Positions 24,055-24,646 of a DNA stretch of 38,099 bases are shown here, piece after piece (the first letter of the stretch is position 1; each line of letters starts with the position of its first letter). The stretch is from Escherichia coli (GTDB taxonomy: Bacteria > Pseudomonadota > Gammaproteobacteria > Enterobacterales > Enterobacteriaceae). The notes under the pieces were generated by a model that was given only the letters and a program-made list of their open reading frames with translations, made no database searches and was not told where the DNA came from. The position numbers were made by a program, and so were the translations under genes. Where the stretch lies: the NCBI RefSeq assembly GCF_003334335.1, contig NZ_QOWQ01000042.1; one strand, 5' to 3'.

Positions 24055-24108
24055 GCAATTGAATTAGAATGAGTTAAGCTCACGCTTTCAAGTGGTGAGC
24101 AACAACTT
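24055..24108. other. prophage-host junction (att region) inside ynfG
   Basis: The last ~50 bp of phage-side DNA contain the hairpin gctcac...gtgagc. Host ynfG coding sequence resumes at about 24107 (aaagatct...). Confidence 0.5.
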
Positions 24109-24646
24109 TAAAGATCTTGGCCCGGAAGTCAGTTTCCGCCGTATTTATGAATACGCTGGCGGCGACTGGCAGGAAGATAATGGCGTCTGGCACCAGAACG
24201 TGTTCGCTTATTATCTCTCCATCTCCTGTAACCATTGCGATGACCCCGCATGTACAAAAGTCTGCCCCAGCGGCGCAATGCATAAGCGTGAAGATGGCTT
24301 TGTGGTGGTTGATGAAGATGTTTGTATCGGCTGCCGCTACTGCCACATGGCTTGTCCGTACGGCGCGCCACAGTACAATGCTGAAAAAGGGCACATGACG
24401 AAGTGCGATGGTTGTTATTCGCGCGTCGCCGAGGGGAAACAACCCATATGTGTCGAATCCTGCCCGCTGCGTGCACTTGAGTTCGGTCCAATTGAAGAGC
24501 TGCGCCAGAAGCACGGCACTCTTGCTGCCGTCGCGCCACTGCCGCGCGCGCATTTCACAAAACCCAATATCGTTATCAAACCTAACGCCAACAGCCGCCC
24601 GACCGGCGATACCACTGGTTATCTGGCTAATCCGGAGGAAGTGTAA
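24106..24646 (+). pseudogene. ynfG: ynfG, 5'-truncated by the prophage (DMSO-reductase-family Fe-S subunit paralogue)
   Basis: Encodes YnfG from ...KDLGPEVSFRRIYEYAGGDW onward; the first ~27 residues including the first Cys cluster are missing. The frame opens on phage-derived GTG...(M)VSNNFK. Confidence 0.8.

Follow-up and report, generated by a model that had tools for sequence, protein, structure and literature searches.

The stretch of DNA analyzed here, referred to as the window, comprises 38,099 nucleotides (nt) of an Escherichia coli contig. Judging by its open reading frames (ORFs) and by the annotation of the equivalent regions in E. coli strain G1/2 and Escherichia phage PhiR5_2, positions 1-24106 represent the early half of a lambdoid prophage devoid of Shiga toxin (stx) genes, with the gene order nanS-p, Q, nin, O/P, cII, cro, cI, N, kil, gam, bet, exo, xis, and int. 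The window starts inside the prophage and includes neither its late half nor its far attachment junction. To the right of int, phage DNA gives way to a truncated ynfG frame, followed by the ynfH and dmsD genes. No tRNA gene was found anywhere in the window, including the junction and the region downstream of Q.

The excisionase gene xis (22664-23035, plus strand, 123 codons) is located upstream of int and overlaps its start in a different reading frame. Its product matches the PHROG family phrog_2907 "excisionase" (E value of 9.7e-44, profile positions 2-117 of 117), as well as Pfam HTH_17 and, above its cutoff, NCBIfam TIGR01764. The int gene (22891-24054, plus strand) runs towards the junction with host DNA and encodes a 387-amino-acid tyrosine integrase of the P22/IntD type, which matches PHROG integrase families and covers positions 1-171 of the 172-position Pfam model PF00589, that is, its full length (E value of 5e-45). 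Given these full-length profile matches, both recombination genes look complete. Candidate arm-type integrase-binding repeats of the P arm were located at 24003-24045 (TGTCCCAAATTTGTCCCA at 24003-24020 and GATGCAAAG at 24037-24045), and the P′ arm has related copies of them (repeat families D1, D5, and D9 on the attP contig described below). Motifs containing GTCCCA and ATGCAAAG are repeated on both arms of attP and constitute putative arm-type sites to which Int may bind.

Several further features of the prophage were recorded. The segment at 3088-4509 holds no stx ORF, and no stx genes were found elsewhere in the window. Between Q (4509-5135) and nanS-p (1085-3088), which is the position of stx in Stx phages, lie two diverged copies of the Rfam family STnc100 on the minus strand (3290-3499 and 3775-3968; 130 and 139 bits), which share 127 invariant columns in an alignment of 211 and each end in a terminator hairpin, AGCCCCTCTCCGGAGGGGCTTTT. 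Phage POC-J13 has a single STnc100 copy just downstream of stx1B (5207-5420 of sequence L011). Within the nin region, Rfam matches to C4 antisense RNA, isrK, and c4 a1b1 targets cluster at 7609-7807 on the minus strand, upstream of an ORF6N/antirepressor-like gene (6881-7555), an arrangement that we read as an antisense-RNA immunity cassette of the P1/P7 type preceding an antirepressor-like gene. The same region carries, at 7741-8500 on the plus strand, two overlapping genes of 153 and 102 codons for a HigB/RelE-like toxin and a helix-turn-helix antitoxin; the PhiR5_2 annotation gives HigB/HigA, and that of G1/2 gives a RelE/ParE toxin. The immunity region (13100-14400, with cI at 13568-14281 on the plus strand, cro, and the start of cII) is 97.7 to 97.8% identical to those of HK97, mEp234, and HK106. 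The cI protein presumably differs from that of lambda at only about three residues, and this 933W-like, podovirus-type prophage would thus carry lambda-type immunity. Finally, lambda-type gam, bet, and exo are immediately preceded by a gene for a 690-amino-acid exonuclease of the RecE family (18497-22330 for the whole group, plus strand), so that the phage carries parts of both RecE-type and Red-type recombination modules.

The attachment core in ynfG

The uninterrupted ynfEFGH-dmsD locus of E. coli K-12 MG1655 served as the reference, and all breakpoints were computed by alignment to it. Host DNA starts again at position 24107, from which the window matches K-12 ynfG for 762 nt without a mismatch, and rightwards of the core the identity to K-12 ynfG-ynfH-dmsD amounts to 99.95% over 2,200 nt. 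The drop on the other side is immediate: the 60 nt left of 24107 are 35% identical to K-12, which is the chance level. The first-pass annotation, made from the letters of the window alone, had placed the end of the integrase gene 50 bp before host sequence; this proximity holds, but the exact phage-only spacer between the int stop codon and the core, which forms the end of the P arm, measures 52 nt (24055-24106). The core itself is the heptanucleotide TTTAAAG at 24107-24113, which corresponds to ynfG codons 27 (TTT) and 28 (AAA) and the first base of codon 29, in agreement with the earlier estimate that host sequence resumes at about codon 28.

The window holds only the int-side junction, and the far junction and attP sequences used for comparison come from relatives. 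In K-12, attB contains gcgtgcaaagatTTTAAAGatcttggcc (longer row used for core comparison, gcaaagatTTTAAAGatcttgg), while the window junction contains gtggtgagcaacaacTTTAAAGatcttggcc (longer row, gcaacaacTTTAAAGatcttgg) and the far junction in strain G1/2 contains gcgtgcaaagatTTTAAAGttggttacg (longer row, gcaaagatTTTAAAGttggttac). From attB and the two junctions, attP was predicted to read GAGCAACAACTTTAAAGTTGGTTACG, and an exact-pattern scan of IMG/VR returned one match. The matching contig (IMGVR_UViG_2579778634_000010) contains gtggtgagcaacaacTTTAAAGttggttacg immediately after the same int gene, which there runs straight into the P′ arm, and the sequence to the left of its core is identical to the 24055-24106 spacer of the window. 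The finding of this contiguous attP independently confirms both attP and the 7-nt core. The deposited records of PhiR5_2 and POC-J13 were considered as independent attP sequences as well and were rejected, since they are linear, end at or near the core, and merely repeat the prophage boundaries.

TTTAAAG is the sole stretch common to attB, the window junction, the far junction, and attP. Beyond it, identity to K-12 extends for 0 nt on the phage sides and for 762 nt and 7,411 nt on the host sides; in G1/2, the 7,411 nt run through TTTAAAG and end there. Compared with ynfG over 60 nt, the two phage arms show 35% and 27% identity. Lambda-type integrases have an overlap region of 7 nt, the same length as this core, and TTTAAAG is thus likely to be the region of strand exchange. 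The locus displays the hallmarks of integration by a lambda-type tyrosine integrase: int adjoins the end of the prophage, an excisionase gene lies upstream of it, and a core is common to all four att sequences, with the similarity to the empty site breaking exactly there. The claim that the prophage sits inside ynfG was thereby borne out, and the alignment that had been proposed as a check defined the core and revealed no ynfG sequence restored from the phage side.

In the K-12 paralogue dmsB, the position equivalent to the core (4484-4490 of sequence L010) reads TACAAAG, with 2 mismatches among the 7 nt of TTTAAAG. These mismatches are consistent with a phage that targets ynfG alone and probably account for its not inserting in dmsB.

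Outside the window, the P′ arm on the attP contig (sequence L009) has two matches to the Rfam family sRNA-Xcc1, at 12581-12669 (69 bits) and 13118-13203 (73 bits). The first is closely followed by an ORF of 94 codons (12710-12994 of L009) whose counterpart in PhiR5_2 and G1/2 is an antirepressor gene. The antirepressor genes of this arm follow ynfE-ynfF in lysogens and share their orientation.

The divided ynfG gene and its operon

On the integrase side, the remnant of ynfG forms a chimeric pseudogene, ynfG′ (24092-24646, plus strand), in which five phage codons (GTG GTG AGC AAC AAC) precede ynfG codons 27-205. Its product would start with VVSNN-FKDLGPEV and run to the normal C terminus of YnfG. 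Both GTG codons, at 24092 and 24095, belong to phage DNA, as the first reading of the sequence had stated; they are preceded by agctcacgctttcaa, which has no purine-rich motif. The in-frame sequence 5′ of the core on this side is NELSSRFQVVSNN, and upstream to an in-frame TAG at 24065-24067 the arm was found to be without an ATG, a purine-rich ribosome-binding motif, or a cysteine. An Int-YnfG fusion protein was ruled out, because the int and ynfG′ frames differ and because of this TAG.

The predicted loss of the first Fe-S cysteine cluster was confirmed. Cys14, Cys17, Cys20, and Cys24 of K-12 YnfG are absent from the ynfG′ product, which covers only positions 25-161 of NCBIfam TIGR02951 (161 positions), compared with positions 1-161 for K-12 YnfG. 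The frame thus lacks the full-length match with the first CxxCxxCxxxC group that characterizes a functional four-cluster ferredoxin of the YnfG/DmsB type, and it likewise lacks a start codon with a ribosome-binding site inside the ynfEFGH-dmsD unit, whose ynfE promoter is absent from the window. On the far side, as seen in G1/2, ynfG codons 1-28 continue into nine unrelated phage codons (VGYVSFKIN) and a stop codon, yielding a 37-amino-acid stub. The homologous ynfG feature at the junction is a RefSeq pseudogene described as "missing N-terminus," and both ynfG pieces are flagged as pseudogenes in RefSeq.

Phage 21 and e14, which integrate in icd, and phages that integrate in tRNA genes carry a copy of the displaced 3′ end, so that the target gene stays functional. 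These elements share with the window prophage the site-specific insertion within a gene by a tyrosine integrase, but here the gene is broken: no arm duplicates the displaced part of ynfG, and a stop codon lies in frame on each side. Since attB is situated near the 5′ end of ynfG and the phage arms contain no ynfG-like sequence, the insertion is disruptive. By its reading frames, ynfG is a pseudogene here, with no ynfG sequence restored by the phage.

Downstream of ynfG′, the genes ynfH (24648-25502, plus strand), encoding the membrane-anchor subunit, and dmsD (25545-26159, plus strand), encoding the Tat proofreading chaperone for DmsA, YnfE, and YnfF, are intact, collinear with K-12 (for ynfH, at a constant offset of +16038), and annotated as such in G1/2. 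The ynfE and ynfF genes lie outside the window. In G1/2, the closest complete genome (98.8% identity over 25 kb), ynfF and ynfE were found immediately past the other end of the prophage, about 62 kb away, which is where the earlier annotation had suggested looking for them and which bears out its view that ynfH and dmsD are separated from ynfE and ynfF.

FNR activates the ynfEFGH-dmsD operon through a single site at position −40.5 upstream of ynfE (PMC3688515). YnfG connects YnfE with YnfH as the electron-transfer subunit, and DmsD acts as a chaperone for the signal peptides of DmsA, YnfE, and YnfF (PMC5203670, PMC12096835). As the insertion lies inside this operon, it removes YnfG and separates ynfH and dmsD from the promoter; the two genes are cut off from the FNR-activated ynfE promoter by a prophage of about 60 kb. 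It is a reasonable inference from this arrangement that the selenate-reductase activity of Ynf is probably lost.

Around int, ynfG′, ynfH, and dmsD, a search for promoter-like matches yielded 3, compared with 4.0 expected from shuffled sequence, that is, the chance level. Between int and ynfH, no convincing intrinsic terminator was detected; the only terminator-like site there consists of host sequence and is present in the intact operon too, so that the insertion has added no new terminator in this interval. In lambda, int is transcribed towards att, and the orientation of int at the ynfG junction mirrors this arrangement. By analogy, read-through from the int side into ynfG′-ynfH-dmsD is possible, and the expression of ynfH and dmsD would depend on such read-through or on unmapped internal promoters.

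Related phages and recurrence of the site

The nearest phage relative is Escherichia phage PhiR5_2 (PV340546.1), whose identity to the phage DNA of the window is 99.9% across all 24,104 nt and 100% in int. As far as the early half that was compared goes, the two appear to be effectively the same phage. The PhiR5_2 record names E. coli K-12 MG1655 as the host, ends a few bases short of the core on both sides, and does not display attP; the series to which this phage belongs is cited in PMC13190303 to a 2025 temperate-phage study (reference 25 therein).

The Shigella phages POC-J13 (KJ603229) and 75/02 Stx (KF766125) carry int genes 99.6 to 99.7% identical to that of the window, so that the int identity across POC-J13, 75/02 Stx, and PhiR5_2 spans 99.6 to 100%. 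Their phage-side arm is the same as that of the window up to the core, and their records end at the same boundaries. The match comprises the int-proximal region of about 14 kb (10338-24105), corresponding to 45% of the 24.1-kb query at 93% identity, whereas the immunity and replication modules of the window prophage differ from those of the two Shigella phages (45% of the phage part covered). Both Shigella phages carry stx1a between Q and nanS-p (stx1AB in POC-J13), in contrast to the window prophage, which has two STnc100-like elements and no Shiga toxin operon at that position. With the same integrase and an attB that recurs in independent genomes, the window prophage is best classified, by gene content, as a stx-negative relative of the ynfG-targeting phages of the POC-J13 type.

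The ynfG attachment site is already known and has been published for this type of integrase. Gray et al. (2014) reported, by PCR, the site-specific integration of POC-J13 into S1742 of Shigella flexneri and its insertion in ynfG of new MG1655 lysogens (PMC4193171). Two primers of that study, Stx_phage_dn and S1742_dn, have matches in the window at approximately 23614 and 24840 and reproduce the reported 1,224-bp amplicon. Integration at the same site has likewise been described for 75/02 Stx (PMC5447701) and in an avian STEC strain with Stx1a (PMC10562709).

Among 5,426 complete E. coli genomes, the 1,001-nt int/ynfG′ junction was present in 89 (at least 80% coverage), and in the 30 matches listed it formed a single alignment piece of 99.7 to 99.9% identity. 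The reciprocal, far junction was detected in 82 of the 5,426. An intact attB was found in 5,234, i.e., 96% of the genomes have an empty site, and the ynfG site is occupied in about 1.6%. The carriers include Stx1a-positive STEC and O104:H4 outbreak strains. The best complete-genome matches to the window were G1/2, G8, and G6/7 (98.8% over 25 kb), and G1/2 carries the same int-ynfG′ junction plus the reciprocal one. Regarding O104:H4, the 2011 outbreak strains and relatives (H52-H55, H93, H95, and H97) harbor in ynfG a prophage with the same integrase, which is separate from the Stx2 phage and has about 56% of the first 25 kb of the window in common at 98.5% identity.

Other lambdoid prophages also insert inside protein-coding genes, among them the Stx2 phage 933W in wrbA. 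These prophages resemble the window prophage in that the tyrosine integrase adjoins the junction, the short core lies within an ORF, and the split target is left unrepaired. They differ in the integrase lineage and in the target gene, which in the window is the third gene of a five-gene operon so that downstream polar effects on ynfH and dmsD would be expected.

Origin and consequences of the insertion

Collectively, these data make it very likely that the prophage entered ynfG by site-specific recombination in an ordinary integrase-mediated insertion and thereby split the selenate-reductase operon; no observation spoke against the integration as such. A temperate lambdoid phage of the POC-J13, 75/02 Stx, and PhiR5_2 type, without stx, would have integrated by means of its P22/IntD-type tyrosine integrase, through recombination of attP with the attB inside ynfG. 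Strand exchange would have taken place within TTTAAAG (ynfG codons 27-29), so that the core is now expected in duplicate, once at each end of the prophage. The ynfE-ynfF side would retain a 28-codon ynfG stub reading on into nine phage codons, and the integrase side would retain ynfG codons 27-205 without a start codon, a ribosome-binding site, or the first cysteine group. The far end in the source genome, predicted from relatives that are 98.8 to 99.9% identical, would consist of ynfF and ynfG codons 1-28, followed by TTTAAAGttggttacgtatcg. Precise excision within the 7-nt core would be expected to restore ynfG fully.

Less favored, although possible, is that the insertion is functionally silent: YnfE and YnfF would pair with DmsB and DmsC, ynfH and dmsD would be expressed from internal promoters or by read-through from the prophage, and selenate- and dimethyl sulfoxide (DMSO)-reductase activity would be kept. 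DmsB is 94% identical to YnfG over all 205 residues and might, in principle, substitute for it. YnfG can reportedly replace DmsB in DmsABC, as Lubitz and Weiner are said to have found in 2003, and the reverse swap could then rescue the activity of YnfE and YnfF. Moreover, ynfE and ynfF keep their promoter in the related genomes, ynfH and dmsD are intact with no convincing intrinsic terminator between int and ynfH, and the occupation of the site in 89 independent complete genomes, O104:H4 included, argues that the cost cannot be severe. The single FNR site upstream of ynfE (PMC3688515) argues against silence, as do the promoter-like matches in ynfG′, which are no more frequent than in shuffled sequence.

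We consider it very unlikely that the insertion couples host and phage expression in both directions, such that the FNR-activated ynfE-ynfF unit would read into the antirepressor genes of the P′ arm and anaerobiosis would raise spontaneous induction, while ynfH and dmsD would come under phage control and excision would act as a reversible switch. What points to such coupling is the orientation of the genes, together with the intact int and xis. If it were true, the maturation chaperone for the DMSO and selenate reductases would be under the control of a phage.

Hardly credible, in our estimation, is an active lysogeny in which controlled, precise excision restores ynfG and the operon as a regulatory switch and the orientation of the prophage couples host anaerobic transcription to phage genes. 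It would be consistent with intact int and xis, with a core in which recombination would regenerate ynfG exactly, and with the related genomes, where the FNR-driven ynfE-ynfF unit points in the sense direction into the antirepressor genes of the P′ arm. Yet the element is an ordinary inducible, plaque-forming lambdoid phage (PhiR5_2 record; POC-J13, PMC4193171), a promoter-like site and leader RNA motifs of their own accompany the antirepressor genes, and most genomes have an empty site. An assembly artifact or chance juxtaposition, a concern raised in the first-pass annotation, is effectively refuted by the identical junction in the 89 independently assembled complete genomes and the reciprocal one in 82, the contiguous attP in IMG/VR, and the PCR verification of the POC-J13 junction (PMC4193171).

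The most probable reading thus remains an ordinary integrase-mediated insertion, by which one prophage boundary is fixed to the base, and this matters little beyond correct annotation. For annotation, ynfG is to be labeled a pseudogene in this DNA, and ynfH and dmsD are genes detached from the anaerobic promoter of their operon. Because Stx1-converting phages of Shigella and STEC integrate at the ynfG site, the exact attB and attP sequences are useful for the typing of prophages.
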